Shown: positions 9,260-45,515 of the stretch, one piece after another
How positions within the stretch are numbered: position 1 is the stretch's first letter
Layout of the letters: each line of letters opens with the position of its first letter
NCBI GenBank assembly: GCA_904384245.1
Contig: CAJFJM010000001.1
Coordinates: forward strand, 21,252 to 85,251
Length of the DNA: 64,000 nucleotides
Direction of reading: 5' to 3'
From: an uncultured Clostridia bacterium
GTDB taxonomy: Bacteria; Bacillota; Clostridia; TANB77; CAG-508
Program-made: the position numbers and the translations under genes
Notes under the pieces: model-generated
Told to the model about the DNA's origin: nothing
Databases searched by the model: none
Seen by the model: the letters and a program-made list of their open reading frames with translations, nothing else

Positions 9260-9306
9260 TATTTAGATATACAAACTCAAGAAATTCGGAAATGGAGGAA
9301 TAACAA

Positions 9307-12045
9307 TTGGATAAATTAGTATTAGTTGATGGGAATAGTATAGCAAATCGTGCATTTTATGGAATTATGGGAAGCAAAATGTTAACAACAAAAGATGGAA
9401 AATACACAAATGCAGTATATGGATTTTTAGCAATATTATTTAAAATATTAGAAGATGTAAAACCACAATATATAGCTGTAGCATTTGATTTAAAAGCACC
9501 AACAGCAAGACATAAAATGTATGAAGGATATAAAGCAAACAGAAAAGGCATGCCAGAAGAACTTGCAGAGCAAATGCCAATAATTAAACAAATATTAAAA
9601 GCAATGAATATAGATATAATAGAAAAAGAAGGATATGAGGCAGATGATGTTTTAGGAACTTTATCTAGATTCGGAGAAAAGCAAGGTTTAGAAGTGCATA
9701 TACTTTCAGGAGATAGAGATACTTTTCAACTAGCAACAGATAATGTAAAAATTCATATACCAAGAACAAAACAAGGAAAAACAGAAACAGAAATATATGA
9801 CAGAAACAAAGTAAAAGAAGTATATGGAATAGAGCCAAAACAGTTAATAGAAGTAAAAGGTCTTCAAGGAGATACATCAGACAATATACCAGGGGTACCA
9901 GGAATAGGAGAAAAAACAGCACTTTCTTTAATTCAAAAATATGGAACAATAGAAAATTTATATAATTTATTAGAAAAAAATGAAACAGATTTAAAAGGAA
10001 AACAAAAAGAAAAAATAGAACAAAACAAAGACTTAGCAGAACTTTCACATTTTCTAGGAACAATAAATCTAGAAGTACCAATAGAAGACACTTTAGAAGA
10101 TTTAAAATTAGAAGAATGGAATAAAGATGAAGTTTTAAAAATATTTAAAGAATTAAATTTTAAAAGATATATAGAAAGATTTAATTTAGAAAATCAGTCA
10201 AAAGAACAATTACAAAATGGAGAAATATCAGAAAACGAAGATAATAAATTACAAAATTTATTTAATATTGTGGATATTTCAATAGAAAATATTTTAGAGA
10301 TAATAAAAAATCAAAAACAAATGATATTTTATATACAAACAGCAGAGGATAATATAGAAGAAAAAATAATAAAGAAAAAAATTACATCAATGGCTATATA
10401 TAATAAGGAAAAAAACGAAGTATATAATATTTTTTTCAAGGAAGAAAAAGATGCAAAAATACTAAAAGAAGTTTTAGAAGATGAAAATATAAAAAAGAAA
10501 AGTCATCATTTAAGTGAGACATATATTTTATTAAAACAAATAGATATAGAAATAAGAGGAATAGAATATGATGCAAAAATTGCAGGATATATTTTAAATC
10601 CAACAGATAATAAATTAAAATTAGATGATTTAATAGAACAATATTTAGGTTTAAATATTCAAGACTATACAGGAAAAGAGCAACAAGAACAAATAACACT
10701 ATTTGAAGAAAATAATAAAGACGAAAATAAAGAAAATGATATAAAGAAAAAACAAATTTCATTTTATGCATATGCAATTTCAAAATTAGAAGAAATGATG
10801 ATAGAAAAACTAAAAGAAATAAACGCATTAGATTTATTTTATAATATAGATATACCAACAATAACAGTTTTATCTGATATGCAATGGAATGGAATGTATG
10901 CAAATATTGACGAATTAAATAAATTTGGAGAAGAATTAAAATTAAAAATAGATGAAAAAATGAAAAATATTCACAAATTAGCAGGAGAAGAGTTTAATGT
11001 TAATTCTACAAAACAACTAGGAGAAATACTTTTTGAAAAGATGAAATTACCAGTTATAAAAAAGACAAAAAGTGGATATTCAACAGATGTAGATGTATTA
11101 GAAAAATTAAGAGGAGAAGACCCAATAATAGAAGAAATTTTAGACTATAGACAACTTGCAAAATTAAATTCAACATATATAGAAGGATTAAGACCATATA
11201 TAAATCCAAAAACACACAGAATACACTCATTTTTCCACCAAACAATCACAGCAACAGGAAGAATAAGTTCAACAGAACCAAATTTACAAAACATACCAAC
11301 AAGATTTGAATTAGGAAAAAGAATAAGAAAAATATTTGAACCAGAAAAAGGAAATGTATATATAGATGCAGATTATTCACAAATAGAACTAAGAGTGCTT
11401 GCACATATATCAGGAGACAAACATATGATACAAGCATTTGAGAACAATGAAGATATTCATAAACAAGCAGCATCAAAAGTATTTAAAACACCAATAGACC
11501 AAGTAACAAAAGAGCAAAGAAGTGATGCAAAAGCAGTAAACTTTGGAATAGTATATGGAATAAGTGATTTTGGTTTAGGAGAACAATTAGGAATATCAAG
11601 AAAAATAGCTAAAAAATATATAGATGAATATTTAACAGAATATTCAGGAATAAAAGAATTTATGGAAAACATAACAGAAGAAGCAAAAGAAAAAGGATAT
11701 GTAGAAACATTATTCCACAGAAGAAGATATATTCCAGAACTAAAATCAAAAAATTATATGGTAAGGCAATTTGGAAGCAGAGCAGCAATGAACACACCAA
11801 TTCAAGGAACAGCAGCAGACATTATGAAAATAGCAATGATAAATGTATATAATGAATTAAAGAAAAGAAATTTAAAATCAAAAATTGTATTACAAGTACA
11901 TGATGAAATGATGATAGAAGTACCAGAAAATGAAATAGAAGAAGTTAAAAATATTCTTCAAGAATGTATGCAAAATGCAGTAAAACTAAAAGTACCACTA
12001 ATAGCAGAAGTATCAATAGCTAATAACTGGTATGATTGTAAATAA
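9307..12045 (+). CDS. polA: DNA polymerase I
   Basis: 912 aa; 5'-3' exonuclease N-terminus (LVLVDGNSIANRAFYG), polymerase motifs A (DYSQIELR), B (RSDAKAVNFGIVYG) and C (QVHDE); TTG start after GGAGG. Confidence 0.95.
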   Translation: MDKLVLVDGNSIANRAFYGIMGSKMLTTKDGKYTNAVYGFLAILFKILEDVKPQYIAVAFDLKAPTARHKMYEGYKANRKGMPEELAEQMPIIKQILKAMNIDIIEKEGYEADDVLGTLSRFGEKQGLEVHILSGDRDTFQLATDNVKIHIPRTKQGKTETEIYDRNKVKEVYGIEPKQLIEVKGLQGDTSDNIPGVPGIGEKTALSLIQKYGTIENLYNLLEKNETDLKGKQKEKIEQNKDLAELSHFLGTINLEVPIEDTLEDLKLEEWNKDEVLKIFKELNFKRYIERFNLENQSKEQLQNGEISENEDNKLQNLFNIVDISIENILEIIKNQKQMIFYIQTAEDNIEEKIIKKKITSMAIYNKEKNEVYNIFFKEEKDAKILKEVLEDENIKKKSHHLSETYILLKQIDIEIRGIEYDAKIAGYILNPTDNKLKLDDLIEQYLGLNIQDYTGKEQQEQITLFEENNKDENKENDIKKKQISFYAYAISKLEEMMIEKLKEINALDLFYNIDIPTITVLSDMQWNGMYANIDELNKFGEELKLKIDEKMKNIHKLAGEEFNVNSTKQLGEILFEKMKLPVIKKTKSGYSTDVDVLEKLRGEDPIIEEILDYRQLAKLNSTYIEGLRPYINPKTHRIHSFFHQTITATGRISSTEPNLQNIPTRFELGKRIRKIFEPEKGNVYIDADYSQIELRVLAHISGDKHMIQAFENNEDIHKQAASKVFKTPIDQVTKEQRSDAKAVNFGIVYGISDFGLGEQLGISRKIAKKYIDEYLTEYSGIKEFMENITEEAKEKGYVETLFHRRRYIPELKSKNYMVRQFGSRAAMNTPIQGTAADIMKIAMINVYNELKKRNLKSKIVLQVHDEMMIEVPENEIEEVKNILQECMQNAVKLKVPLIAEVSIANNWYDCK

Positions 12046-12087
12046 ATGTTAGTTTTGTTTTTAAAATTTGAAAAGGAGAAAAATATT

Positions 12088-12675
12088 TTGAAAAAAGTAA
12101 AAAACAAGAAAAAACTAATTTTAACAGTTACAGTGTTAATAATTTTATTTGTAATGATTATTCTATTTGGAGTATTTAAATTGCATACAAGAATAATGGA
12201 GATAATATATCCTAGGGAGTATGATAATTTTGTAGTGCTTTATGCACAAGAATTTCAAGTAGATGAAAATTTAATATATGCTATTATAAAAGCAGAAAGT
12301 AATTTTAATCCAGAAGCGGTTTCTGGAAAATCAGCAAAAGGACTAATGCAATTGGTTGATGATACAGCTTTAGATATTGCTAAACAATTAGGGATAGATA
12401 TGGAAGAAGAAGAAATTATACAGAAATTAAATGATGTAGATTTTAATATTAGGCTTGGAACAAAGTATATATCTATGTTAATTGAAAAATATGAAAATAT
12501 ATCTTTAGCATTAACAGCATATAATGCGGGAATAGGGACTGTAGATACATGGATTGAAAAAGGAACAATTCAAGAGGATGGTTCAGATGTGGAAAATATT
12601 CCATATAAAGAAACAAATCAATATGTTAGAAAAATTTTGAGAGATTATAAAATATATCAAAATTTGTATGCCTAA
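12088..12675 (+). CDS. membrane-anchored lytic transglycosylase (SLT domain)
   Basis: SLT motif ESNFNPEAVSGKSAKGLMQL, AYNAG; N-terminal TM; GGAG RBS before in-frame TTG 12088 (ORF track starts at ATG 12046). Confidence 0.7.
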   Translation: MKKVKNKKKLILTVTVLIILFVMIILFGVFKLHTRIMEIIYPREYDNFVVLYAQEFQVDENLIYAIIKAESNFNPEAVSGKSAKGLMQLVDDTALDIAKQLGIDMEEEEIIQKLNDVDFNIRLGTKYISMLIEKYENISLALTAYNAGIGTVDTWIEKGTIQEDGSDVENIPYKETNQYVRKILRDYKIYQNLYA

Positions 12676-12828
12676 AATACGAATGAAAAGCGAATGAAAT
12701 ATGAATGAATTTGCCTAAAATACCAAATAAAATACGAATAAAATAAGGACTGGACAAATTAAAAAAAATGCAATAAAATATATAATGTAGTTTAGAAAGA
12801 ATAGGAGAATAAAAAATGCGGAGAACAA

Positions 12829-14049
12829 TTGATTTTTGCTGTAATTGCATTTGGATTATTCATATACATGTTTTATGAAATGATAAGAAAAAATGATACA
12901 AGTTATGTGGTAATTCTTATTATTCAGGCATTAGGAATAGCATGCAATTTTATAGAAGTTTTGTTTGATATAAAAGCAAATGCTTTTGTAGTTATTTTAA
13001 AATATATTTTAGCAATACTTATACCGGGGGCAATTATAATATTAACTAAAAAGAATATACCTTTAATGGAGGTAGAAAATGTAGCATTAGCAAATTTTTG
13101 GCTTATGTTAGGTAATAGAAAGATGGCTAAACAATGTTTAATAAATTTAGTTACAAAATATCCTGAAAATTATCAAGGGCATAAAATGTTAGCTGTAATT
13201 TATGAAAAAGAAGGTGGAATGAGAAAAGCAATTGACGAATATGTACAAGCAATTGATAGTAATAAAAAAGATTATGATTCATATTATAAGGTTGCAGAAC
13301 TTTTAACACAATTAGATAAAAAAGATGAAGCAGCTCAGATGTTATTTAATTTATTACAAAAAAAACCAGAATATTATCAGGCAACAATTTTACTTGGTGA
13401 TATTTTAATAGAAAAGGAGCTTTATAAAGAGGCTGCAAATGTTTATCAAGATGCTTTAAGATTTAACCCAGGAAGTTTTGATTTAAATTATAATTTAGGA
13501 ATAGTATATACAATGCTTAATGATTTTCAAAGTGCAAAAATATGTTATGAAAAAGCGGCAGAATTAAATGCAATGTCTTATGTTTCTAAATATTCTTTGG
13601 CAGAGATTGCACTTATTTATAAGGATTTAGAAGAAGCAGAAAAATATTTTATGGAAGTGTTGCAGGATGATGCTTTATCAGCAGATGGATATTATGAATT
13701 GGCAAAAATTGAACTTATAAAAGGGAATAAAGATATGGCTATAAAGTATGTGAATACAGCTATAGATGCAGATTCTAAAAGAATAGTGGCAAAAGTAAAA
13801 AAAGATCCAATTTTTATACCAATTATAGCTAAAATTGCAATTCCTTTTAATTTGGAGGAAAAAGAAGGGGCTAAAAAATTGGCGGAAAAAGAGGTAAGGG
13901 TTAAAGAGCATTTGGAGGAAATGTTTGAGATAACTAGACATTTGAGTTATAGTGATATTGAGCTTTTGAATTATAATAAGGAGAGGGATTTTGATAAAGT
14001 TCATGGTGTGGAGGAAGAGTATAGAAATTTTGATGAGAGACAAAAGTAG
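12829..14049 (+). CDS. TPR-repeat protein with N-terminal transmembrane segments
   Basis: 406 aa; 2-3 N-terminal TM helices then multiple 34-aa TPR-like repeats (…AIDEYVQAI…, …AANVYQDALRFNP…); start codon uncertain. Confidence 0.65.
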   Translation: MIFAVIAFGLFIYMFYEMIRKNDTSYVVILIIQALGIACNFIEVLFDIKANAFVVILKYILAILIPGAIIILTKKNIPLMEVENVALANFWLMLGNRKMAKQCLINLVTKYPENYQGHKMLAVIYEKEGGMRKAIDEYVQAIDSNKKDYDSYYKVAELLTQLDKKDEAAQMLFNLLQKKPEYYQATILLGDILIEKELYKEAANVYQDALRFNPGSFDLNYNLGIVYTMLNDFQSAKICYEKAAELNAMSYVSKYSLAEIALIYKDLEEAEKYFMEVLQDDALSADGYYELAKIELIKGNKDMAIKYVNTAIDADSKRIVAKVKKDPIFIPIIAKIAIPFNLEEKEGAKKLAEKEVRVKEHLEEMFEITRHLSYSDIELLNYNKERDFDKVHGVEEEYRNFDERQK

Positions 14050-14172
14050 GTTTTTGGACCATTAGTGGAGGCTAGTGGTCTATTTTTTTATGAGTCTATT
14101 TTCGAAGTACTAATAATTTTTTATATTGTTTTGAGTTTGTTTGCAAAGGTTACCAATATTTATTGTGAGTCC

Positions 14173-14349
14173 GTTTCCAAAGGTTACTAATAATTTTTTT
14201 ATATTTAAAAACACTCCATAGCAGGGTCGTTTGAAAACCTAATTGGTTGCTCACGCATGTGGGTCTAGGTACGGTTTTCAAGCTGACGCGGGTCTTAGGG
14301 AACTGTCGGTGTTTTAAATATAAAAAAATTATTAGTAACCTTTGGAAAC
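14173..14349. repeat. MITE-like element: near-perfect 42-bp inverted repeats flanking a 94-nt GC-rich core
   Basis: Left arm 14173-14214 (GTTTCCAAAGGTTACTAATAATTTTTTTATATTTAAAAACAC); right arm 14309-14349 is its reverse complement with one indel; core about 50% GC in a mid-20s% genome; partial arm-like copies at 14107-14133 and 14137-14170. Confidence 0.5.
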
Positions 14350-14670
14350 TACTGAGAGATTGTAAATAAAGTGATTTGAGTTTTATGTTATATTGTTTAT
14401 GTTATATTTTATTTTAGATGTTATATTATATTGTTTTTATTTTTTAGATAAATATATAGTGAGTATAAATGTTTATTGTTTTTGAATGACTTTAGTTTAA
14501 AATACTTTTTATTTATCATATCTTTAAATAAAATTATGGTGACTATAGTGATCTCTTTTATTAAAATATTTTTTAAAAATATAGTTGAGTGTTTTTAATT
14601 GTAGCATAATATATGTGGTCTTTTAATAATATTTATAGAAGTATAAAATTTGGAGGTGCTGTGTATTTAT

Positions 14671-15534
14671 ATGGAAAAGGTTTATGGAATTTTGGGTGGA
14701 GATAATAGAAATATAAAATTGGCAAAATTGCTTGCAAAAGAAAATAATATAGTATATACTTATGGCTTAGAAGAGGCAGAGGAATTGTTAGGGATAAGTA
14801 AAATATATAATTGTAATTCAGTTGAGGAATTGGCTTCTAGTAGTGGAATTATAGTTGGACCTATACCATTTTCAAAGGATGGTGTGAATGTTTTAATGCC
14901 TTATAGTAATCAAAAGATAACAATTAAAGAATGTGTAAAAAAGATTTGTAATAATAATAAACTTGTAGTAGGTCAGGTTTCAGATGATATTTATAATTTA
15001 GCTAAAGATAGTAACTTGGAAATTGTAGATATAATGAAGTGTGAAGAGTTAGTTATTTTAAATACGATAGCTACAGCTGAGGGGACAATTCAAGTTTTGA
15101 TGAAAAATACAGATACTATTTTGCAAGGGTTATCTGTTTTGATATTAGGTTTTGGAAAAGTTGCAAAGACTTTGGCATATAAATTGTATAATATGCAAAT
15201 GGATGTGACTTGTGCTGTTAGAAAAAGTACAGATTTAGCATGGATTAAGGCATATGGATATAAAGAAAAAAATATTCATGAATTATCTTCATATGTTGGA
15301 GATTATGATATTATTATAAATACTATTCCAGCTATTGTTGTTGGGAAAAAAGAAATAGAAAAAATAAATAATGAAACACTAGTAGTAGACTTAGCTTCTT
15401 ATCCGGGGGGGATAGATGTTGATGAAATAAAGAAAAAAGACATAAAATATGTATGGGCATTAGGTTTACCAGGAAAAGTAGCACCAGTGACTAGTGCAAA
15501 ATATATTAGGCAAACAATAGAATTATATTTGTAA
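14671..15534 (+). CDS. dpaA: dipicolinate synthase subunit A (SpoVFA/DpaA)
   Basis: N-terminal Rossmann-like GILGGDNRNIKLAKLL, overall DpaA-like; GGAGG RBS 14 nt before ATG 14671. Confidence 0.7.
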   Translation: MEKVYGILGGDNRNIKLAKLLAKENNIVYTYGLEEAEELLGISKIYNCNSVEELASSSGIIVGPIPFSKDGVNVLMPYSNQKITIKECVKKICNNNKLVVGQVSDDIYNLAKDSNLEIVDIMKCEELVILNTIATAEGTIQVLMKNTDTILQGLSVLILGFGKVAKTLAYKLYNMQMDVTCAVRKSTDLAWIKAYGYKEKNIHELSSYVGDYDIIINTIPAIVVGKKEIEKINNETLVVDLASYPGGIDVDEIKKKDIKYVWALGLPGKVAPVTSAKYIRQTIELYL

Positions 15535-15625
15535 TATTATATATGTAAAAAATATAAATATAAAAATTATAATTTGAATAACTATTTGTGTTTTCATAGA
15601 AAAAAGGAAGGGATGAATAAAAAAA

Positions 15626-16416
15626 TGAATGAAGTTTTACAAGCACTAATTTTAGGAGTAGTTCAAGGACTAACAGAATTGTTACCAATATCAAGTTCTG
15701 CACATTTAAATTTAATACCTTGGATATTTAATTGGAATGTTCCAGAGAGTTTTGATGTTGCTTTACATTTTGGGACATTACTTGCAATAGCACTATTTTT
15801 CTTTAAAGATTGGATTTCTTTAATAAAAGGTGGGTATAAACAAGTAGTTAAAAAGGAAAAGTCATTTGAAGGTAAAATGTTTTGGTATATAGTAATAGCA
15901 ACAATACCAGGAGGAATAATAGGATTTCTATTAGATCATTTTGTAGGGGAATCTTTAGGAAAAATGCCATTACTTATAGCCATAGCACTAATTGTTATGG
16001 GAATTATTTTATATGTTGTAGATAAAAAAGCACCAAATAAAACAAAGTATAAAGATATGACTTTTAAACAAACATTTATTATAGGTGTTTCTCAAGCTTT
16101 AGCATTTATACCAGGAGTTTCACGTTCTGGTATAACAATGACAACAGGAAGATTGATGGGTGTTGATAGAGCATCAACTGCTAAATATTCTTTTATGTTA
16201 TCAGCACCAATTGTTTTAGGGGCAACACTTTATAAGTTTAAAGATTTTGTTTTTGGTATGCCTTTTGTAGTAGGAGTTTTATCTAGCTTTTTAGTTGGAT
16301 TACTTGTAATTAAATTTTTATTACAATATTTGCAAAAGGGAAGTTTTAAGGTATTTGCAATTTATAGAATAATTATAGGATTAGTTGTAATTGCAATTTA
16401 TTTTTCTAGAATTTAG
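15626..16416 (+). CDS. uppP: undecaprenyl-diphosphate phosphatase UppP/BacA
   Basis: GLTELLPISSSAHL motif, 8 TM; AGGAAGG RBS before ATG 15626. Confidence 0.9.
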
Positions 16417-16474
16417 AATAAAAATTTTTTCTTAGTGATATTTTTATTAAAAATAAAATTTTCACATATTTAAA

Positions 16475-16517
16475 AGATGAATTGCCAAAAATAATAATGC
16501 GAATTCATCTTTTTTTG
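16475..16517 (+). terminator. rho-independent terminator after uppP
   Basis: AGATGAATT…AATTCATCT hairpin followed by T7. Confidence 0.6.
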
Positions 16518-16617
16518 AATTTATAATGAAAAATTTAGAAATAAATGCTATAATACTTTTAAAGTATTATTATTTAATTTTGCAGATAATGTCTGCAAAA
16601 TTAGAAAGAAGGTAGAA

Positions 16618-17666
16618 ATGGAAAATGAAATAGATATAAGTAAATATAAACAAATTTTTGAGAATATAAAACAAGAGGTACTAAAATCACAATATAAAGC
16701 AATGCAAGCAGTAAATACAGAAATGATATATATGTATTGGAATATTGGAAAAATCATATCAGAAAACATTGAATGGGGAAATAAATTCGTTGATAATCTT
16801 TCTATTGATTTGAAAAATGAATTTCCAAATATTCAAGGTTTTTCAGTTAGAAATTTAAGAAATATGAGAAAGTTTTATGAAGAATATCCTAGTATTGAAA
16901 TTTTGCAGACATTGTCTGCAAAATTGACTTGGTCGCATAATATTTTGCTAATAAATAAAATTAAGGATATGGAAATTAGAAAATGGTATATGAAAGAAAC
17001 AATCAAAAATGGTTGGTCACATGATGTTTTAGCAGACCAAATAAAATATAAATTATATGAAAGACAAGCTATAGCAGAGAAAGTAACAAATTTTGAAAAT
17101 ACATTGCCAGATGCTCAAAGTGATTTAGCTATGCAAACAATGAAAGATCCATATATATTTGATTTTATTGTTTTAAAAGGACAAGTGAAAGAAAAACAAA
17201 TAGAAGATGCTATGATTGAAAAAATAAAAAATGTGCTTATTGAGTTAGGAAATGGATTTGCATTTGTAGGAAATCAGTATAAGATAACAGTAAGTGATAC
17301 AGATTATTTTATAGATTATTCTATCATTTAGAATTAAGATGTTATGTTGTAGTGGAATTAAAAGCGAGAAAATTTAAACCTACTGATGCAGGACAATTGA
17401 ATTTCTATTTATCAGCGATAGATGATATGTTAAGAAAAGATGGAGATAATCCAACAATTGGGATATTACTATGTAAAGAAAAAGACAAACTAACAGCAGA
17501 ATATGCTTTAAAAGATATAAATAAACCTGTTGGCGTAAGCGAATATAAACTTTTACAAGATATACCAGAATATTTGCAATCACAATTACCAAAAGCAGAA
17601 GAAATTGAATTGCATATTAAAGATATTGAAGAAATAGAAAAACAGCAAGATAATGAAGAAGAATAA
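16618..17666 (+). pseudogene. DUF1016/YhcG-family PDDEXK nuclease gene disrupted by a frameshift near 17316
   Basis: ORF 16618..17331 carries the family N-terminal region (…LSAKLTWSHNILLI…); ORF 17352..17666 in another frame carries the C-terminal VELKARKFKPTDAGQLNFYLSAIDD motif; the alternative frame reads …LFYHLELRCYVVVELK… across the gap. Confidence 0.65.
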
Positions 17667-17710
17667 TATATCATTTTAAATTATGCAACCGCAGTTGCAA
17701 AATTATAAAA

Positions 17711-17750
17711 AAATCGTTTTAGATTAAAAATATCTAAAGCGATTTTTTAA
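17711..17750 (+). terminator. rho-independent terminator
   Basis: AAATCGTTTTAG…CTAAAGCGATTT hairpin then T6. Confidence 0.55.
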
Positions 17751-17759
17751 TGAAAATTT

Positions 17760-18900
17760 TTTATCTACATCAAAAAAGATATAAAGTTATACCAAAAACA
17801 ATCAAAAAAGGCTAAAAATTGAAAATGAAGCGAATGAACGGAAGAAGGGAGGGTATGTCTAACTTAAATTTAAACAGTAAGTAATATAGCTTGTGAATAT
17901 ATAATAACATCTGATAAAGAATTTTTTGAAAGAATAGGGGAAAAAAAAACAAAAAGATATTTTGAAGTAGCATATCAATTTGTTTGTGAATACAAGAATT
18001 TAGGAGAACAATATATTTTATCTGCAAAAGTGCATATGGATGAGTAAAGTCCACATATGCACTTAGTTTTTTTGCCAGTTGTTCATACAAAAGATAAAAA
18101 AGGAAATAATATAGATAAACTTGCTAATGTTTTATTGCATAAGGAATTGTCAAAATAAGCAAAGGTTATAGAAAAAGCAGAAAAATATCAAAATGAAAGA
18201 GATAAAATACTTGCAGATAATGAAGAATTACACAATACAGTAAAGCATTTAGAAAATCAGAAGAAAGAATAAAACAGTTAGAAGAGTTAGAAGAAAAGGA
18301 AGATTCATTAGTAGACATTGATAAACTTGTTAAAGATTTTGTAAATATGAAAGAAATAACAAGAACAATGCTTGTATCTTTAGTTGATAAGATAGAAGTA
18401 TCAGAAAATAAAGAAATAACTATATATTATAAATTCAATATTTTAAATGTGGGAAAAGAAGAAACAGGATATGAAGAAACAGAAGGAGCAAAACAAAAAT
18501 ATGTAATATATATGCAAATACAGAATTAGCAGATGAAGTAAGAAGTATAAGAATAGAAGATATAAATAGAGCAGTAGGAGTAGAATTAGGGACAGATGAA
18601 GAAGGAAAGCAAATAGTATATAGAATAGATGATTCAGAGAAAACAAATATTGATCAAATGGGTGTATTAGGAAATGTATATAATTATTGTTCAGGAAATT
18701 ATGACCAGAAAATTATTTAATAGACATGGCAAAAAAGGAAAAACATTAGAAGGAATAACAGAAAAATATGTAGGAGATTCTAATACAGCAACAGCATATT
18801 GACAATACAGATTCATTGGCAGATGGGGGATATTTAGCAGGAACAGACGGAAAGCTTGGAGCAGAAGATAATGGTGAGGAGAATTACTAATATAACAAAA
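17760..18900. mobile_element. decayed remnant of a mobilisable element (Mob/Pre relaxase pseudogene plus serine-recombinase C-terminal fragment plus further fragments)
   Basis: 17890-18270 translates to …SDKEFFERIGEK…AKVHMDE*SPHMHLVFLPVV…ANVLLHKELSK*…, the Mob_Pre HMDE-TPH-HLV motif with in-frame stops and a poly-A frameshift; 18302-18529 gives …LVDKIEVSENKEITIYYKF…, like large serine recombinase C-termini; no intact ORF longer than 60 aa. Confidence 0.55.
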
Positions 18901-19124
18901 AATGAAAGCGATATTTATAAAATTTAATAAAATAGATTCAAATTAAGTGTATAAAATAAAATCTAACATTTTGAATTAACTATATACATTATGTCAAAAC
19001 GATATATTTGTATATAGTTTTTTTATATATAATATTTTATATAAACACAAATATAAAAAATCACATTGTTTTTTTACTCAATATATGTTAAAATAACCAA
19101 AGAATCAAAAAAAGAGGGATAACG

Positions 19125-20996
19125 ATGTTAGAAAAAATAAATTCACAACAAGACCTAAAAAAATTAACACTAGAAGAAAAGAAAATACTTGCACAAGAAA
19201 TTCGAGAATATATATTAGATATAGTATCAAAAAATGGAGGGCATTTAGCCTCTAATCTAGGTGTAGTAGAATTAACTATTGCTCTTCATAGTGTTTTTGA
19301 TGTTCCAAAAGATAAAATTGTTTGGGATGTAGGACATCAAACTTATGTGCATAAAATTTTAACAGGAAGAAAAGAAGAATTAAAAACATTAAGAAAGTTA
19401 GATGGAATAGCAGGTTTTCCTAAAACAAATGAATCTGAATCAGATTGTTTTAATACAGGTCATAGTAGTACATCAATTTCAGCAGCACTTGGGATGGCTA
19501 GAGCAAGAGATATAAAAAATGAACATAATTCAGTATTAGCAGTTATAGGTGATGGGGCTTTAACTGGAGGTATGGCAATAGAAGCATTAAATGACGCAGG
19601 ATATAGTAGGTCAAAAATAACAGTTATTTTAAATGATAATGAAATGAGTATCTCTAAAAATGTTGGCGGACTAAATATGTTCTTAAGTAAGCTAAGAACA
19701 AAAAAATTATATACAAAATCAAATGTTTCAGCAAAAAAAATCATATTAAAAATTCCAGTTGTAGGAAGACCATTTGTACGATTAGTTCAAAGAGCTAAAA
19801 GGAGTATAAAACAGTTAATTATACCTAAAATGTTTTTTGAAGATATTGGTTTTACATATTTAGGTCCAGTTGATGGGCATAATATACAAGAATTAGAAAA
19901 TATTTTAAGATTAAGTAAACAAGTAGATACACCAGTTTTAATACATGTTTTAACTAAAAAGGGTAAAGGATATGAAATAGCAGAAAAAAATCCAGATAAA
20001 TTTCATTCAATTTCCCCTTTTAATGTAGAAACAGGAGAGACCAAAAAAGCAAAATCAAAAGATTATTCAGCAGTTTTTGGAGAAAAATTGGTAAGTTTGG
20101 CAGAAAAAAATGATAAAATAGTAGCAATTACAGCATCTATGAAAGATGGGACAGGTCTTACTAAATTTCAAAAGCAATTTCCAAAAAGATTTTTCGATAT
20201 AGGAATTGCAGAACAACATGCTGTAGGGCTTGCAGCAGGAATGGCAAAGGCTGGAATGATACCTGTTGTTCCAATATATTCGTCTTTTTATCAAAGGGCA
20301 TATGATCAAGTTATTCATGATGTAGCAATACAAAATTTACCAGTCATAATGTGTGTAGATAGAGCTGGAATAGTTGGGGCAGATGGAGAAACACATCAAG
20401 GTTTATTGGATATGGCATTTTTTAGATTAGTACCAAATTTAACAATTATGGCACCTAAAAATTTTAAAGAATTAGAAAAAATGTTAGAATTTGCTGTTAA
20501 TTTAAATAAACCAGTAGTTATAAGATATCCAAGAGGTGGAGAAGATAGTATAGATATAAATACTGATTTAGAAATAAATGAAGGAAAAGCAGAGATTTTA
20601 AAAGATGGAACAGACATTACAATTGTAGCAATAGGAAAAATGGTTTCAAGAGCATATAGAGTAGCTGATAAATTAAAACAAAATAATATTGATGCACAAG
20701 TTATAAATGCAAGATTTTTAAAACCATTTGATAATAATACTGTAAAAAATGCAATAGAAAAAACAAAAGCAGTTGTTACAATTGAAGATGGAACTATTAT
20801 AAATGGACTAGCAACAACAGTTAATGAACTTGTAATAAATGAAAATTTATTAGGAATAAAAATTAAAAACTTTGCTTATCCAGATATCTATGTAAAACAT
20901 GGAAGTGTAGAAGAATTAGAAAAAATATATGGATTAGATGAAGAAAATATAACAGAGAAAATAGAAAAAATGCTAAAAGATGAGGTATTAGTTTAA
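19125..20996 (+). CDS. dxs: 1-deoxy-D-xylulose-5-phosphate synthase
   Basis: 623 aa; TPP-binding GDGALTGGMAIEALN, typical Dxs N-terminus. Confidence 0.95.
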   Translation: MLEKINSQQDLKKLTLEEKKILAQEIREYILDIVSKNGGHLASNLGVVELTIALHSVFDVPKDKIVWDVGHQTYVHKILTGRKEELKTLRKLDGIAGFPKTNESESDCFNTGHSSTSISAALGMARARDIKNEHNSVLAVIGDGALTGGMAIEALNDAGYSRSKITVILNDNEMSISKNVGGLNMFLSKLRTKKLYTKSNVSAKKIILKIPVVGRPFVRLVQRAKRSIKQLIIPKMFFEDIGFTYLGPVDGHNIQELENILRLSKQVDTPVLIHVLTKKGKGYEIAEKNPDKFHSISPFNVETGETKKAKSKDYSAVFGEKLVSLAEKNDKIVAITASMKDGTGLTKFQKQFPKRFFDIGIAEQHAVGLAAGMAKAGMIPVVPIYSSFYQRAYDQVIHDVAIQNLPVIMCVDRAGIVGADGETHQGLLDMAFFRLVPNLTIMAPKNFKELEKMLEFAVNLNKPVVIRYPRGGEDSIDINTDLEINEGKAEILKDGTDITIVAIGKMVSRAYRVADKLKQNNIDAQVINARFLKPFDNNTVKNAIEKTKAVVTIEDGTIINGLATTVNELVINENLLGIKIKNFAYPDIYVKHGSVEELEKIYGLDEENITEKIEKMLKDEVLV

Positions 20997-32830: not shown

Positions 32831-34117
32831 ATGGATAAAAAATTAGAATGGAGAAGATTAGATAATTCAGCTAAAATCTTTCCCATATCAGCTGGAAAAA
32901 AGTACAGTACAGTATTTAGATTATCTGTAGTACTAAAAGAAAAAGTAAATGCAAATATTTTAAAAGAAGCAGTAAAAATTGCTTTAAATAAATATAAATA
33001 TTTTAAAGTAAGGATGAAAGAAGGATTTTTTTGGAACTATTTTGAATATAATCCAAAAGAACCAATAATAGAACAAGAACAAGAATATCCATGTAAATAT
33101 ATAGATCCTAATAAAAATAATCAATATTTATTTAAAGTAACATATTTTAACTGTAAAATTAACATAGACATTTTTCATTCTTTAACAGACGGAAATAGTG
33201 GAGTAGTATTTTTTAGAGAAATAATATATGATTATCTAGAACTATCTTATCCAGAAGTTTTTCAAGAAGAATTAAGAAAAATAAGAAAAGTAGATATATC
33301 TTCAGAAGATAGTTATATAAAAAATTATGATAAAAAATCTAAAAATCATATTCAATCTAAAAAAGCATATAAATTATATGGAAAAAAAATAAAATTAGGA
33401 GCAATTTCTGCAATTCATGAAATAATAGAACTAGATAAACTAAAAGAAGAATGCAAAAAAAATGATGCAACTATTACTCAATATTTAACAGCTGTTTTAA
33501 TATATAGTATATATACTGAAAATTATTTAAAACACAAAGGAAAAAGACCAATTAAAGTATGTATACCAATAAACTTAAAAAAATATTTCCCATCTAATAC
33601 AATTTCTAATTTCTTTTCATATATGACAGTGGAAGCAGAAATGAAAAAAGACAATTTAACAGATTTTGAAAAAATATTAGAATTTGTAAAACAAGAATTT
33701 AAGAAAAAATTAACACAAGAAGAAATTCAAAACACAATGTCAAATAATGTAAAACTAGGAATAAATCCATTTATAAAAACAATACCACTATTCCTAAAAA
33801 AGCCAATAGTAAGATTAAGTTATATAGAAATAAGAAAATATACAACAACAACATTTTCTAATATAGGAAGAATAGGTATAATAGGAAAATACAAAGACTA
33901 TATAGAGGAATTTTTAATGCTAATTGCTCCAGAGCCAGTAGAAAAAATAAAATGTTCAGCATGTTCATTTGAAAACAAAATAGTTTTTACATTTACATCT
34001 ATATTAGATGATGCAAAAATAGAAAAAAGATTTTTTGAATTTTTACAAGGAAAAGGTATTCCAGTAAAAATAGAAAGTAATGGTGTTTTAGATGTTATAT
34101 CCACAAAAATTAAGTAG
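32831..34117 (+). CDS. putative acyltransferase of the condensation/WS-DGAT/AATase-like superfamily
   Basis: 428 aa; HSLTDGNSG (HxxxDG) catalytic-type motif about 115 aa from the N-terminus. Confidence 0.4.
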   Translation: MDKKLEWRRLDNSAKIFPISAGKKYSTVFRLSVVLKEKVNANILKEAVKIALNKYKYFKVRMKEGFFWNYFEYNPKEPIIEQEQEYPCKYIDPNKNNQYLFKVTYFNCKINIDIFHSLTDGNSGVVFFREIIYDYLELSYPEVFQEELRKIRKVDISSEDSYIKNYDKKSKNHIQSKKAYKLYGKKIKLGAISAIHEIIELDKLKEECKKNDATITQYLTAVLIYSIYTENYLKHKGKRPIKVCIPINLKKYFPSNTISNFFSYMTVEAEMKKDNLTDFEKILEFVKQEFKKKLTQEEIQNTMSNNVKLGINPFIKTIPLFLKKPIVRLSYIEIRKYTTTTFSNIGRIGIIGKYKDYIEEFLMLIAPEPVEKIKCSACSFENKIVFTFTSILDDAKIEKRFFEFLQGKGIPVKIESNGVLDVISTKIK

Positions 34118-34655
34118 TAAAAAAAGTAATTTAATAATAAAAAGTTTGCTCATAGTTTCAATAATTATAGCAATATTATTAGTTATAATTAACAAATTAA
34201 CAACTCCAGAAATACACTGGGCAGCTTTAGCAAATAGTGGTATAATTTATACATGGCTTACAGTATTATATTCAATAAATAAAAATACAAATATAGCAGC
34301 ACATGTTATGATTCAAACAATTGCAATATCAATATTAACAACATTTATAGATTATAGAATAGGATTTAAAGGTTGGTCATTAGAAATAGCTATTCCAATT
34401 ATTTTAATAATAGCAAATGTAACAATGCTTATTTTAACAATAGTAAGTCATAGAAAATACATAAGATATGCAATATATCAGTTAATTATATGTATATTTA
34501 GTTTATTACCATTATATTTTATTTATGAGAAATTTATATATCAAAATGTATTAAGTTATATAGCAGTAGGAATATCAATTCTAAATTTTTTAATAACAAT
34601 ATTATTATGTGCAAGAGATGTAAAAGAAGTAATAATAAGGAAATTCCATGTTTGA
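34092..34655 (+). CDS. small polytopic membrane protein (about 5 TM), unknown function
   Basis: 187 aa, hydrophobic helices; overlaps the upstream gene by 26 nt. Confidence 0.4.
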   Translation: MLYPQKLSSKKSNLIIKSLLIVSIIIAILLVIINKLTTPEIHWAALANSGIIYTWLTVLYSINKNTNIAAHVMIQTIAISILTTFIDYRIGFKGWSLEIAIPIILIIANVTMLILTIVSHRKYIRYAIYQLIICIFSLLPLYFIYEKFIYQNVLSYIAVGISILNFLITILLCARDVKEVIIRKFHV

Positions 34656-34662
34656 TTTTCCT

Positions 34663-34758
34663 CGGATAATGGGGACACGCCATTTCGTCCGAATCGGATA
34701 ATGGGGACAGGCTGTTTTATCCGAATCGGATAATAGAGACGCGCCATTTTCTCAGAAA
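34663..34758. repeat. perfectly periodic 32-bp tandem repeat x3 (TCGGATAATGGGGACACGCCATTTCGTCCGAA-like)
   Basis: Units at 34663, 34695, 34727; unit junctions form TTATCCG-AAT-CGGATAA palindromes; begins 8 nt after the stop of the upstream gene. Confidence 0.85.
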
Positions 34759-34818
34759 ACTAAAATATTAGATGGATTTACTTAGTTAGAATTTAAAAAG
34801 AAATTTAGGTGATAATAT

Positions 34819-34992
34819 ATGTCAAATAATAAAACAGGACTTATATTAGTAAAAGATACAAAATTTGATAAAATAAGAAGAAAATTGTTGATGTTTTTTT
34901 GGGGAAAGGATTATAAGATAATAGAAGAGTTTCAATCTATAATTCAGGTAAAAAGACCAAAAAATATAATAATTCCCAAAGAAATAAAGTGA
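34819..34992 (+). CDS. possible 57-aa small ORF between the two repeat sets
   Basis: AGGTGA RBS 7 nt before ATG 34819; MSNNKTGLILVKDTKFDKIRRKLLMFFWGKDYKIIEEFQSIIQVKRPKNIIIPKEIK; its stop overlaps the start of the next repeat. Confidence 0.25.
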   Translation: MSNNKTGLILVKDTKFDKIRRKLLMFFWGKDYKIIEEFQSIIQVKRPKNIIIPKEIK

Positions 34993-35150
34993 ACGATAGG
35001 GACACGCCATTTTGTTTCCGTTCTTACTAGGAGTGGCTTTTAGCTGTTAGTATTTATACTTTTTGAGATGAACGTTAGGGACATGCCATTTTGTTCACGA
35101 TTTTGCTATGAGTGGCTTTCAGCTGTCAGCTTTCACTGCTTTTTTGAGAT
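34990..35150. repeat. about 80-bp tandem repeat x2 sharing the GGGACAYGCCATTTTGT core, each ending in CTTTTTTGAGAT
   Basis: Unit A 34990-35068 and unit B 35070-35150 (about 75% identical); each contains AGTGGCTTT(T/C)AGCTGT(T/C)AG. Confidence 0.75.
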
Positions 35151-35397
35151 ACTTTTTAAGGATACACCTTAAAAATTCGAATATAGAACAAAGAGTAGTT
35201 TTTAACTAATACGAAAAATAAATGAGTAATGGAGAAGGTTAAAAAATAATTATAATTTTGACTGTGTTAAATTTTATTTAAAACGTGGTTACATACAATG
35301 TATGAGTATGTCTTTACTTTTTAAATATAATTTTCCTTGCCAAAATTTAAATCTTAAAAAACCAAATTTGTGCGTTTGGAAAGGAATGAATTAAAAA

Positions 35398-36423
35398 ATG
35401 AAAAATATAAAGGATTATACATTAGAAGAATTAAAAGAAGAAGTGAAAAATCTTGGAGAAAAGCCATTTAGAGCAGAGCAGATTTTTAAATGGCTATATG
35501 AAGACAAGGTTTTATCATTTGATGATATGACAAATTTATCAATTGATTTAAGAAACAAATTGAAAGAAATATATGAAATCAAACAATTTAAGATTTTAAA
35601 GAAACAAGTAGCTTCAGATGGTACTAAAAAATATTTGTTTGATTTATTAGACGGAAATGCCATAGAGACAGTTTTAATGCAATATCATCATGGATATAGT
35701 TTATGTGTTTCATCACAGGTTGGTTGTAAAATGGGTTGTAAATTTTGTGCATCTACAGGGATACCATTTGTAAGAAATTTAACTACAGGTGAGATTTTGG
35801 AACAAATAATGGCAGTAGAAAGAGATGAGAATATCCGTATTTCAAATGTAGTATTTATGGGAATAGGTGAACCATTAGATAATTATGATAATGTAGTAAA
35901 AGCTATACATTTGATAAATAATCCAAAATGTTTAAATATAGGAGCAAGACATATTAGTATTTCTACAAGTGGATTAGTTCCTAAAATATATAAATTAGCA
36001 GAAGAAAATATACAATGTACATTATCTATATCTTTACATGCAACAACAAACGAGCAGAGAAGCAAAATGATGCCAGTTAATAATACATATCATATAGAAG
36101 AATTGTTACAGGCATGTAAGGATTACATAGAAAAAACTAATCGTAGAATTTCTTTTGAATATGCATTGGCAAAAGAAAATAATGATAATTTAGAAGATGC
36201 TAAAAGATTAGTAAAATTATTAAAAGGAATGTTATGCCATGTTAATTTAATACCAATAAATAAAATAGAAAATGGTGAATTTACAAAAAGTTCAAATGAA
36301 AATATAATAAAATTTAGAGATTATTTAAATGAACATGGAATTGTTGCAACAATTAGAAGAGAACTAGGTTCAGATATAGATGCAGCTTGTGGACAACTAA
36401 GAAGAAAAAATTTACATGAATAA
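35398..36423 (+). CDS. rlmN: 23S rRNA (A2503-C2)/tRNA methyltransferase RlmN
   Basis: radical SAM CKMGCKFCAS, typical RlmN length and N-terminus. Confidence 0.9.
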   Translation: MKNIKDYTLEELKEEVKNLGEKPFRAEQIFKWLYEDKVLSFDDMTNLSIDLRNKLKEIYEIKQFKILKKQVASDGTKKYLFDLLDGNAIETVLMQYHHGYSLCVSSQVGCKMGCKFCASTGIPFVRNLTTGEILEQIMAVERDENIRISNVVFMGIGEPLDNYDNVVKAIHLINNPKCLNIGARHISISTSGLVPKIYKLAEENIQCTLSISLHATTNEQRSKMMPVNNTYHIEELLQACKDYIEKTNRRISFEYALAKENNDNLEDAKRLVKLLKGMLCHVNLIPINKIENGEFTKSSNENIIKFRDYLNEHGIVATIRRELGSDIDAACGQLRRKNLHE

Positions 36424-42938: not shown

Positions 42939-43121
42939 AAAATGCTTTTAAATTATATTTTTCTGACCAATGTAGAATAATACTCTTAAAAAAGTTATAC
43001 ATTTAAAAGATTTCAGAGTTAATAAATGTTTGAAGATTTTTTTAAGATAAAATAAAAGAGGTTCTCAAATTTATGATATTGAGAACTTCTTTTATTTTAT
43101 CTTTAGAATGGCTTTAAGCAT

Positions 43122-45515
43122 TTATTTATTTCCATCAATTTCTGCATATTTTTTCAATTTCTCATAAACTAAATAATTAACAGTACCAGCAGGGAAGTGG
43201 CCAGTAGAATCTTTTTTACCAGCAGGAACGCCAGTTAAAACTTCAATACCTTCTTCAATAGTAGAAACTGAATAGATGTGGAATAATTTATTTTTAACAG
43301 CTTCAATAATTTCATCAGAAAGTTGTAGATTATCAACATTTTGAACAGGAATCATTACACCATGTTCACCTGTTAAACCTCTCATTTTACAAATTTGAAA
43401 ATAACCTTCTATTTTTTCATTTACACCGCCAATTGGTTGAATTTGTCCTTTTTGATTTACAGAACCTGTAACAGCTATTGCTTGGTTAATTGGAATACCA
43501 GAAAGACTAGAAAGCAATCCATATAGTTCTGTACTAGAAGCACTATCTCCATCAACTCCATTATATAATTGTTCAAAACAAATACTTGCAGTTAAACAAA
43601 GTGGAATATCTTGTGCAAACATTTCTCCTAAGTATCCAGTTAAAATTAAAACACCTTTAGAATGAGAAGGGCCAGAAATTTCAACTTCTCTTTCAATATT
43701 TACAACGCCATTTTTTCCAGTATAAGTATTAACAGTTATTTTAGCAGGTTTTCCAAAAGTATAATCTCCAATTGTCATAATAGTTAAACCATTTAAAGTA
43801 CCTACTTCATAACCTGAAGTATCAATTAGTAATGAATGATTTTCAATCATTTCCATATATTTTGCATCATATTTTTTAACACGATTTATTTGTTCTTCTA
43901 AGGCTTTAGTTATAAAACCTTCTGTAATAATTTTAGATTTAGCAATTTTTGCCCATGTAGCAGCTTCTCCAACAATCTGTATTAAATCGTCAAATCTAGT
44001 AGAAATTTTAGAATGACTTCCAGCAAGTTTCGAAGCATATTCAATTAACCTTGCCATAGCTTTTTTATCTAGGTGAGGAAGTTCTGCATGTTCACAAAAT
44101 CCATGAACAATGCAAGCAAGTTTATTTAAATTTTCTTTTGTTATAGGTGCATCATCTTCAAATTCAACTTTTATTTTAAATAACTTTCTAAAATCAGAAT
44201 CCATTGAAAGTAGTGTTTGATAAATTGAACTATTTCCAATTAAAATTACTTTTAAATTTAAAGGAATAGGCTCAGGTTTTAAAGAAATCATTACCATCGA
44301 AGCTCTTTGTTCATTAGCATGTTCTATTGCAATTTCTTTTATTCTTAAGGCTTTTTTTAAAGCCTCATAACAAGCAGGATTAGATAATAAATCTTTTGCT
44401 TGAAATATAATATATCCACCATTTGCTAAATGTAATAGTCCTGGTTTTAACATTGTGTGATCAGTTTTTAAAGTTCCATAATAATTTTCATATTCAAGAA
44501 AACCAAAAATATTATTATAAGAATAATTAGAATCCATAATAACTGGAGCACCTTCACGTTGAGAATTATCCACAAATAAATTTACTCTATAATTTAAAGA
44601 AGGGTCAGTCTTTCTCATAGCAGGATTCATTGACATTTGTTGTTGTTGATTATTTTTATTATCTTCTTCTAGAAAATAAGATACATTTTTTAGAACATCT
44701 TGTTTTACATCATTTAAGAATTTATTTATTTTTTTATTTCTTTTATATTTTGATTTTAGATAATTTATATGAACATTTATTGTTAAAAGAGCAATATTTG
44801 ATTGCCATTCAGAAATTCTTTTATCAGAGGCACGTTCAATTTCCTTAATTTGACCTATTACATTCATAATTTGTTCTTGAACAATAGCAGAATTATCTTC
44901 ATAATTTTGCTTAGTTTCATTATCTAATTTATCAAATTCTTCTTCTTCAATAATTCTTCCATCTACAATAGGCATCATATATATACCATTTTGAGAGGCT
45001 TTTACATGAAAATTATATTTAGAAGCATCTTCATTTAATTTATTTAAAAGAGCACTTCGTTTTTCTTCAAATTCTTGTTTAATTAAAGCTTTTTCTTTTT
45101 CAAAATCATCTGCATTAAAAGTTTTTTTGATATCTTTTTTAATTTCTTTAATAAATCCATCCATTGCATCTTTGAATTCTTTTCCTTGTCCTGCAGGTAA
45201 AGAAACTGCAATTGGTTCATTTGGATTATCAAAATTATAGATATAACACCAGTCAGAAGGGACTTTCTTCTTGCTAGAAATTTTATTTAGGTAATTTTTA
45301 GTATACATTGTTTTTCCAACACCACTTGGCCCTTCAATGTATATGTTATAACCTTTTACATCAACTTGAACACCAAATTCTAAAGCTTTTATTCCTCTAT
45401 CTTGACCTATTCCAGATTGAATTGGTTCAAGTTCTGCAGTTGTGTCAAAATTTAATAAACTTTCATCACATGTGAATTTTAAATCTTTATAATTTAATTC
45501 ATTTTTTTTCTTCAT
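43122..45515 (-). CDS. Lon-related ATP-dependent protease (AAA+ plus C-terminal S16 domain; TIGR00764-like)
   Basis: 797 aa; Walker A GPSGVGKTM, C-terminal Lon proteolytic domain with the catalytic Ser in GDSASSTE. Confidence 0.8.
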   Translation of the reverse strand: MKKKNELNYKDLKFTCDESLLNFDTTAELEPIQSGIGQDRGIKALEFGVQVDVKGYNIYIEGPSGVGKTMYTKNYLNKISSKKKVPSDWCYIYNFDNPNEPIAVSLPAGQGKEFKDAMDGFIKEIKKDIKKTFNADDFEKEKALIKQEFEEKRSALLNKLNEDASKYNFHVKASQNGIYMMPIVDGRIIEEEEFDKLDNETKQNYEDNSAIVQEQIMNVIGQIKEIERASDKRISEWQSNIALLTINVHINYLKSKYKRNKKINKFLNDVKQDVLKNVSYFLEEDNKNNQQQQMSMNPAMRKTDPSLNYRVNLFVDNSQREGAPVIMDSNYSYNNIFGFLEYENYYGTLKTDHTMLKPGLLHLANGGYIIFQAKDLLSNPACYEALKKALRIKEIAIEHANEQRASMVMISLKPEPIPLNLKVILIGNSSIYQTLLSMDSDFRKLFKIKVEFEDDAPITKENLNKLACIVHGFCEHAELPHLDKKAMARLIEYASKLAGSHSKISTRFDDLIQIVGEAATWAKIAKSKIITEGFITKALEEQINRVKKYDAKYMEMIENHSLLIDTSGYEVGTLNGLTIMTIGDYTFGKPAKITVNTYTGKNGVVNIEREVEISGPSHSKGVLILTGYLGEMFAQDIPLCLTASICFEQLYNGVDGDSASSTELYGLLSSLSGIPINQAIAVTGSVNQKGQIQPIGGVNEKIEGYFQICKMRGLTGEHGVMIPVQNVDNLQLSDEIIEAVKNKLFHIYSVSTIEEGIEVLTGVPAGKKDSTGHFPAGTVNYLVYEKLKKYAEIDGNK

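Follow-up and report, generated by a model that had tools for sequence, protein, structure and literature searches.

What is the conspicuous G+C-rich block of repeats that lies just upstream of rlmN in a very AT-rich Clostridia genome? The block occurs in the 64-kb stretch of DNA analysed here (the window), within the gene order radical-SAM HemN-like, 428-aa transferase-like, DUF6320 (34092-34655), 57-aa ORF, rlmN (35398-36423), 146-aa ORF and spoIVA, the last on the opposite strand. A first-pass annotation had described the whole region between the DUF6320 gene and rlmN as untranslated and had proposed, for its two sets of tandem repeats, a protein-binding array, a group of small structured or terminated RNAs or a satellite-like element. 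Our analyses point to an explanation of the last kind: we estimate at roughly 60% the probability that the five repeat units are locally amplified copies of a dispersed repeat similar to REP/REPIN or MITE elements, non-coding, able to form hairpins and confined to one lineage. The units are:

34663..34694, plus strand: u1, 32-bp unit with the sequence CGGATAATGGGGACACGCCATTTCGTCCGAAT; Tandem Repeats Finder; covariance model R1, 46 bits, E 1e-9
34695..34726, plus strand: u2, 32-bp unit; sequence, Tandem Repeats Finder and repeat finding; R1, 24.7 bits
34727..34758, plus strand: u3, 32-bp unit; sequence, Tandem Repeats Finder and repeat finding; R1, 40.7 bits
34990..35068, plus strand: unit A, 79 bp; repeat finding; R1, 45.1 bits at 34988-35022
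35069..35149, plus strand: unit B, 81 bp; repeat finding and fold; R1, 44.6 bits at 35067-35101

The tandem organization of both sets is as first described. According to Tandem Repeats Finder, positions 34662-34749 hold 2.8 copies of a 32-bp period (80% matches, score 120), and repeat finding recovers three copies in exact 32/32 register at 34663-34758, while the two units initially given as about 80 bp long measure 79 and 81 bp (34990-35149) and contain a 61-nt block that recurs 79 bp apart with 84% identity. All five units have a GGGACAYGCCATTT-like core in common. When the window is searched with the pattern GGGACAYGCCATTTT at up to three mismatches, the only matches are the five units and one unrelated site, a count reached by none of 100 shuffles, so that the array is indeed beyond chance; the core that had been read in all five units is, however, exact in A and B only, with one mismatch in u1, two in u3 and three in u2. 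The TTATCCG-AAT-CGGATAA hairpins described at the junctions of the 32-bp units are likewise only partly there: the u2/u3 junction forms a perfect one, but the u1/u2 junction reads TCCGAATCGGA. Nor do both sets begin at a stop codon in the same sense, the first starting 7 nt after the TGA of the DUF6320 gene and the second having the TGA of the small ORF inside the stem of its unit A. Searches with an nhmmer profile and with the covariance model R1, filters off, detected no units in the window beyond these five (5 units per 64 kb), which all lie at one locus in direct orientation, none of them as part of an inverted doublet; long G+C-rich inverted repeats are not found in the window.

Alignment of the five units with their relatives reveals a unit of about 31 nt, with the consensus CGAAYRTTRGGGACACKCCATTTTGTTCGGA, whose conserved 19-nt loop corresponds to the shared core and is closed by a 5-bp stem. 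The stems form subfamilies, namely CGGAT/ATCCG in the 32-bp units, TGAAC/GTTCA in unit B and in the single unit of short-form strains (see below), and CGAAC/GTTCG in a relative, the congeneric species presented below. Across 19 units, 95.8% of the stem cells are paired, with both-sided compensatory changes in three of the five pairs, and pairing reaches 97.7% across 35 distinct units collected with the covariance model; in a control with the 3' partner shifted by 1-3 columns, it drops to only 4-40%. These values show that the stem is maintained through compensatory changes between subfamilies. Conservation is higher in the loop than in the stem, a pattern that would also fit a sequence-specific function at the protein or RNA level. 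An additional inner loop helix, AATGG/CCATT, was considered and rejected, its R (A/G) position having no compensating partner.

The individual units depart from this consensus in different ways. Among the hairpin-repeat units, u1 falls in the CGGAT/(A/G)TCCG stem subfamily; u2 has the most diverged loop among the copies (GGGGACAGGCTGTTTT) and yet the best stem (CGGATAA/TTATCCG, 7 bp), and the stem of u3 is degenerate (CGGAT...CTCAG). Unit A is composed of a hairpin-repeat unit at 34990-35020 (TGAAC.../GTT(T)) and a 48-nt locus-specific tail that includes a weak stem and a T-run (…ACTTTTTGAGA). Unit B is similarly made of a hairpin-repeat unit at 35069-35099 (stem TGAAC/GTTCA) and a tail that closes with an imperfect stem and the run TTTTTT, which together might act as an intrinsic terminator. 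We found no relatives of the A and B tails in any locus fetched, nor of a 230-bp segment further downstream; the 79-bp 'unit' is therefore best understood as a segmental duplication comprising one hairpin unit and adjacent local sequence.

The description of the region as untranslated does not hold, since the possible 57-aa ORF mentioned by the first-pass annotation, to be checked for conservation, has numerous homologues:

34819..34992, plus strand: gene for a 57-aa small protein; 71 homologues with 51-100% identity

As judged from these homologues, it is a real conserved small gene that is not part of the repeat family and is located between both repeat sets. It occurs directly upstream of rlmN in every relative examined, even with rearranged flanks. 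The small protein alignment is conserved up to ...IIIPKEIK, with a variable tail beyond; the protein of the window ends exactly at ...IIIPKEIK, and its TGA (34990-34992) is placed inside the 5' stem of unit A, an overlap of 3 nt between gene and repeat that corresponds to the stop codon.

Evidence on the nature of the units also comes from outside the window. We scanned one genome per species, for 185,579 species in total, with the query TRGGGACAYGCCATTTYGT, and obtained nine loci. Five of them, in genomes of high GC, are unrelated or occur as single copies, and the other four are contigs of one MAG, 'uncultured Clostridia bacterium BRZ_CS__bin99', with 26-30% GC and at least 12 units. One of these contigs (L086) is syntenic with positions 8996-19883 of the window at 74-82% nucleotide identity, and the MAG therefore represents a different species of the same genus, hereafter the congener. 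The unit has more than 30 distinct matching copies at further loci of the congener (E 1e-8 to 1e-11), which shows, by sequence similarity, that the family exists outside the rlmN locus and occurs in this close relative at many unrelated intergenic sites. All copies of the congener are intergenic, often immediately 3' of a stop codon or intrinsic terminator, and they adjoin genes as unrelated as SLT, bacA, dxs, tsaE, pcrA and aspS. They occur mainly as inverted doublets, with arms of 42-67 nt that are 76-93% complementary and separated by 1-5 nt, and some are solo units, found in both orientations relative to transcription. We distinguished 16 doublets of 72-92 nt, all predicted to fold into near-perfect hairpins (-45 to -68 kcal/mol); the top strand is the more stable one in 13 of the 16, an asymmetry that is not significant because the doublets represent only about six independent loci. 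In each of ten strains of the congener species, gathered via their BacA protein, a locus of 11-21 kb holds 2-4 doublets, or 4-8 units; one strain has 8 units in 20.8 kb, and we estimate the copy number of the unit at tens, not hundreds. R1 scores are 43-55 bits for the doublet units, 50-52 bits for three solo units of the congener and 24.7-46 bits for the copies of the window, to be read with the caveat that R1 was built from the same sequences.

By contrast, sister species that have the DUF6320-small ORF-rlmN order in common with the window, and an RlmN that is 91% identical, have spacers of 27-78 bp and 93-161 bp devoid of units. The units were therefore gained in the lineage of the window, one set per spacer. 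Units were equally absent from the other congeners surveyed at their rlmN neighbourhoods (L070-L085, L100-L112) and bacA neighbourhoods (L123-L127). In other collections, JGI metagenomes contained one true family member (L098), all remaining matches lying in apparent coding sequence of unrelated G+C-rich contigs (52-56% GC). In viral contigs, the 15-mer core gave 63 single chance matches, unrelated and mostly in high-GC contexts, among which one seemingly extended match (L058) was discarded as it falls inside an RNA-virus polymerase ORF. No relevant match was found in plasmid and phage collections, and a full-text search of the literature for the core sequences returned none. Together, the many unrelated intergenic sites of the congener and the empty orthologous spacers of sister species lend support to the satellite-like option among those originally proposed. 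Because the unit is dispersed between genes in a close relative, we regard it as an ordinary repeat of the REP/MITE type and not as a conserved regulatory array or small-RNA locus.

A cis-regulatory array would work differently: the GGGACAYGCCATTT loops would be operators, bound by a regulator that might be the small protein, and would control the small ORF and rlmN. The exact 32-bp spacing (about three helical turns), the conservation of the loop sequence above that of the stem and the position of sites on both sides of the small gene are all in line with this idea. However, relatives retain the small protein and rlmN without the sites, for which reason we abandoned an operator array for the small protein as the main reading, and the units of the congener adjoin genes that have nothing in common with this locus. 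The small protein itself, with no match in Pfam or NCBIfam, is predicted as a two-helix hairpin with low confidence only (pLDDT 68), and short-form strains have lost one of the two downstream sites, seemingly unharmed. The dispersal of the unit in the congener and its absence from the orthologous spacers of sister species thus disfavour a locus-specific operator array, which we consider quite improbable.

The regular phasing of a partly palindromic unit of about 32 bp is also reminiscent of CRISPR, which the first-pass annotation had rightly set aside. We reject it because spacers are absent: the units abut, the period of 32 bp being the unit length, and there are only three diverged copies; no cas genes or domains were detected among the neighbouring ORFs scanned.

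Small RNAs are a further candidate explanation. Each 79/81-bp unit might encode a short RNA ending at its T-run, with the 32-bp array serving as a 3' stabiliser or terminator. In agreement with this, A and B both end in a T-run after an imperfect stem, a terminator-like site is found within unit A (35018-35036; one vs 0.2 expected) and a possible compensatory change links the two tail stems (ACT..AGT vs GCT..AGC); the 32-bp array folds somewhat better than shuffles, with z values of -2.1 (plus strand) and -3.3 (minus strand). For units A and B themselves, folding is no better than in shuffled sequence (z -0.36 and +1.04), so that the folding statistics of the window units are weak, and the stems of the candidate terminators in A and B are weak too. 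There is no plus-strand promoter-like site upstream of A, B or the 32-bp array, the only ones being at 34819, within the small ORF, and 35560, within rlmN. Likewise, no Rfam family covers the units: between 33500 and 36500, three chance-level matches appear at E<=10, none of them overlapping the repeats. To this must be added that the tails lack relatives in the loci fetched, that the units are not conserved outside the species, being missing from sister species, that the second unit is dispensable in short-form strains and that the solo units of the congener occur in both orientations relative to transcription. We therefore judge a small-RNA locus improbable. Taken with what was said above on operators, this means that the repeat block should not be mistaken for a regulatory array, a small-RNA locus or a degenerate CRISPR.

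Variation among strains of the window species allowed us to examine how the two sets change. The 32-bp array has three copies in all strains seen, in a spacer with 0-1 substitutions, and this invariance indicates that slippage is not active there. Downstream, the block comes in two versions, a long form with a 405-bp gap and a short form with a 96-bp gap, the latter found in three strains (L003, L131 and L132). The difference of 309 bp, one boundary of which adjoins unit B, corresponds to 79 bp plus a 230-bp segment, both missing from the short form, which keeps a single hybrid A/B unit. Alignment and strain comparison define the parts downstream of the units as follows:

35109..35338, plus strand: 230-bp segment missing from the short form
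35339..35397, plus strand: rlmN leader with the ribosome-binding site GGAAAGGAA, present in long and short forms

The 230-bp segment is itself free of units and is flanked by an 8-bp direct repeat, ATTTTGCT / ATTTT(C/G)CT, the right-hand copy of which is a perfect ATTTTGCT in one strain (L130).

Could the block be merely a local accident, that is, random spacer DNA duplicated in tandem by slippage in one strain or species, with no wider family? The head-to-tail tandem arrangement of both sets and the lack of units in sister species would agree with it, and the first-pass annotation had already reasoned that units not conserved in close relatives would indicate simple strain-specific slippage. 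Such conservation is indeed lacking, but slippage does not explain everything, as the unit belongs to a dispersed family, of which another species has more than 30 distinct copies elsewhere, and the two sets occupy two separate spacers with units of two different stem subfamilies. Slippage is refuted as a complete explanation, one to which we attach hardly any likelihood, and survives only as the amplification step.

The explanation that we prefer, a dispersed hairpin repeat, can be framed as follows. In the manner of REP/REPIN or MITE elements, the hairpin would be, or would once have been, mobile but non-autonomous, spreading through the action in trans of a transposase that recognises the hairpin and its loop, most plausibly one acting on single-strand DNA (HUH/Y1, RAYT-like). 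One copy might have inserted into each spacer flanking the small gene, and local amplification by slipped-strand or unequal recombination would then have produced the head-to-tail array of three 32-bp units and the segmental duplication of two 79-bp units. Compared with the doublets, the copies of the window, solitary or in direct orientation, have diverged further, and they are probably relics that are decaying or no longer mobile. At present they would have a likely incidental effect, by forming RNA or DNA hairpins at the 3' end of each of the two upstream transcripts (DUF6320 and small ORF); in strains with the long form, the block with its terminator-like T-run would separate the small ORF from rlmN. 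Against a mobile dispersed repeat speak the head-to-tail arrangement of the window, which is not that of the relative, the invariance of the 32-bp array, the conservation of the loop above that of the stem and a copy number of only tens, as do the negative results, detailed below, of our searches for a transposase in about 0.3 Mb of the two species, for a target-site duplication and for a lone doublet that is cleanly present or absent.

REP and REPIN sequences, including the BIME clusters, are known from Enterobacteria and Pseudomonas, where they are mobilised by RAYT (Y1/HUH) transposases. By analogy, the element studied here would work like REP/REPIN or a small MITE. As in REP sequences, its unit is a short imperfect palindrome (~30 nt) and extragenic, all copies lying between ORFs except for the 3-nt overlap of unit A; it forms tandem clusters, has a lineage-specific distribution and is often found just after stop codons or terminators. 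The inverted doublet with a short variable spacer, which makes a long hairpin, is its main form in the congener, not in the window, where the copies are head-to-tail singlets. Doublets of REP sequences are better conserved than singlets, which are seen as decaying remnants, and tandem clusters occur (PMC3337134). Moreover, Group 1 RAYTs have been reported in Clostridia (PMC5581495). The element differs from REP/REPIN in its low-GC uncultured Clostridia host, in that the loop and not the stem is conserved, without a GTAG-type 5' motif, and in a copy number seemingly of tens, with no RAYT gene in the sequence examined. Membership of the REP/REPIN class is not established, precisely because of the conserved loop, the lack of GTAG, the modest copy number and the missing RAYT.

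MITEs such as Correia in Neisseria and RUP and BOX in Streptococcus pneumoniae offer a second comparison. Like them, the element is small, non-coding and intergenic in an AT context, consists of two inverted arms (terminal inverted repeats, 76-93% complementary) around a short centre, is patchy among close species and is linked with local rearrangements. It differs in that the doublet, of 72-92 bp, is smaller than most MITEs, no target-site duplication is seen, the doublets being flanked by no direct repeat, and we found no parent insertion sequence whose ends match. In none of the loci examined is a transposase gene bounded by units; no transposase was recognised among the ~37 window and MAG ORFs scanned, PF01797 (Y1/RAYT) has no match among the called genes of L113-L122, and neither Y1/RAYT nor another transposase with such ends was found in the ~0.3 Mb of the two species. 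In one locus (L087), a PDDEXK_2 'transposase-like' nuclease gene is located 2.6 kb from a doublet, and nothing links them. If a cognate transposase or recombinase were to emerge, the conserved 19-nt loop would provide a well-defined recognition element. Independently of this, the data document a REP/REPIN-like hairpin family in an uncultured spore-forming genus of low-GC gut Clostridia, where such elements are poorly catalogued, although the practical value of the finding is modest.

In the congener species, the copies also mark sites of insertion/deletion polymorphism, as shown by two loci. Between bacA and dxs, 'filled' strains have a 924-aa RCC1-repeat gene (3 kb) with a doublet on either side, whereas 'empty' strains have a single doublet composed of the left half of the first and the right half of the second. 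A diagnostic K position, T/T and G/G in the filled strains, has the T/G hybrid in some empty alleles. The empty allele is the product expected of recombination between directly repeated doublets or, in reverse, of circle integration. In two strains, the first doublet is cut at an ACTCCA microhomology, and one doublet (L113) has a different centre with a longer spacer. Between tsaE and mreB, strains have either both or neither of a doublet and a 196-aa gene, and the boundaries are ragged, with 8 nt of filler. No clean presence/absence of a lone doublet was seen, and the insertion boundaries were not definable by comparing the doublet sites of the congener with the orthologous spacers of the window, which are too diverged.

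These rearrangements raise a more exotic prospect, namely that doublets, and the units of the window by descent, are attC-like recombination sites for gene cassettes, with the spot upstream of rlmN as a cassette hotspot. They would belong to an undescribed dispersed cassette-exchange system of low-GC gut Clostridia, in which a trans-acting recombinase inserts and excises single genes at hairpin centres. If true, this would explain the bracketed RCC1-repeat gene, the hybrid doublet of the empty allele, which fits site-specific circle integration or excision, and the variable doublet centre with its different, longer spacer in L113. The joint presence or absence of the 196-aa gene and its adjacent doublet would also agree, as would the varied cargo held by the small ORF-rlmN interval of relatives (CBAH, GNAT, NTase+HEPN). 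As with integron attC sites, the imperfect palindrome is found 3' of a gene and a single gene lies between two sites, with a hybrid in the empty allele. Nevertheless, homologous recombination between direct repeats of ~75 bp suffices to account for the hybrid doublet just as well, units are missing from those rlmN loci of relatives that bear cargo and the tsaE-mreB deletion is ragged, with its 8 nt of filler. Furthermore, no integrase or recombinase adjoins any copy among the called genes, IntI, attI and a cassette array are absent, sequence inspection reveals neither integron-type R''/L''-L'/R' boxes nor a GTTRRRY box, and the copies are scattered among core housekeeping genes. We hold both the cassette-site reading and the exchange system that it implies to be very doubtful. 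Whatever the mechanism, the repeats coincide with gene presence/absence in the congener species, and they are therefore useful markers of plastic sites and strain types.

A gene for a small protein of 57–70 aa lies directly 5' of rlmN in all congeners examined (window 34819-34992; rlmN neighbourhoods L070-L085 and L100-L112), and among these congeners the adjacency holds also at loci with rearranged flanks. In some species, cargo is found between the small gene and rlmN, namely a choloylglycine hydrolase, a GNAT acetyltransferase, or an NTase+HEPN pair. The protein carries the conserved motifs TKFDKIRR and NRPKNIIIPKE and had no family match in Pfam or NCBIfam; AlphaFold predicted only a two-helix hairpin with low confidence (pLDDT 68). 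About 0.75 kb 3' of rlmN, three strains of the window species (L002, L004, L006) retain only a 91-aa C-terminal fragment of spoIVA, followed by radC and metK; the gene is full length (492 aa) in the window and in strain L001. The short version reflects either a rearrangement breakpoint within the sporulation gene or an assembly chimera.

Strain-level variation also marks the bacA-dxs spacer. Here the window carries a YhcG/DUF1016 PD-(D/E)XK nuclease gene split in two ORFs, probably a pseudogene due to a frameshift, at the position where sister-species strains gain or lose an RCC1-repeat gene with flanking hairpin doublets (inverted pairs of the main ~31-nt unit):

16618-17331, first ORF of the split nuclease gene
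17352-17666, second ORF of the split nuclease gene

The sister species harbors other repeats as well. A second G+C-rich palindromic family, GTGGTCAATTGGGGACGGGT ... ACCCGTCCCCAATTGACCAC, occurs in two of its strain loci (L114, about 15790-16000; L115, about 15800-16980), where it shares ATTGGGGAC with the main hairpin family and adjoins both a doublet and a 196-aa lipoprotein-like gene that is variably present among strains. In addition, the first 11 nt of the main unit, CGAATTTTGRG, form short tandem copies before or after full units:

L087 (sister-species contig), 4555-4590
L113 (sister-species strain locus), 13850-13875
L086 (sister-species contig), 3775-3800

The orthologous spacer in the window (12676-12828) holds degenerate CGAATGAAA-type repeats without any unit. 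Outside the genus, Halalkalibaculum sp. DA3122 (L088, L094) presents several copies of the perfect palindrome GGGACAYGCCATGGCRTGTCCC within 8 kb, which look like an independent REP-like family sharing the GGGACAYGCCAT core by coincidence.

Two further features of the window deserve mention. The first 26 nt of the DUF6320 gene (34092-34117) are shared with the end of the 428-aa transferase-like gene before it; gene calls in relatives show this overlap too, suggesting that the two genes are translationally coupled. The other, a possible bidirectional terminator unrelated to the main hairpin family, reaches into the 3' end of the LonC-like protease gene (43122-45515, minus strand):

43021-43126, AT-rich long inverted repeat with 48-nt arms, 83% complementary, and a 10-nt loop
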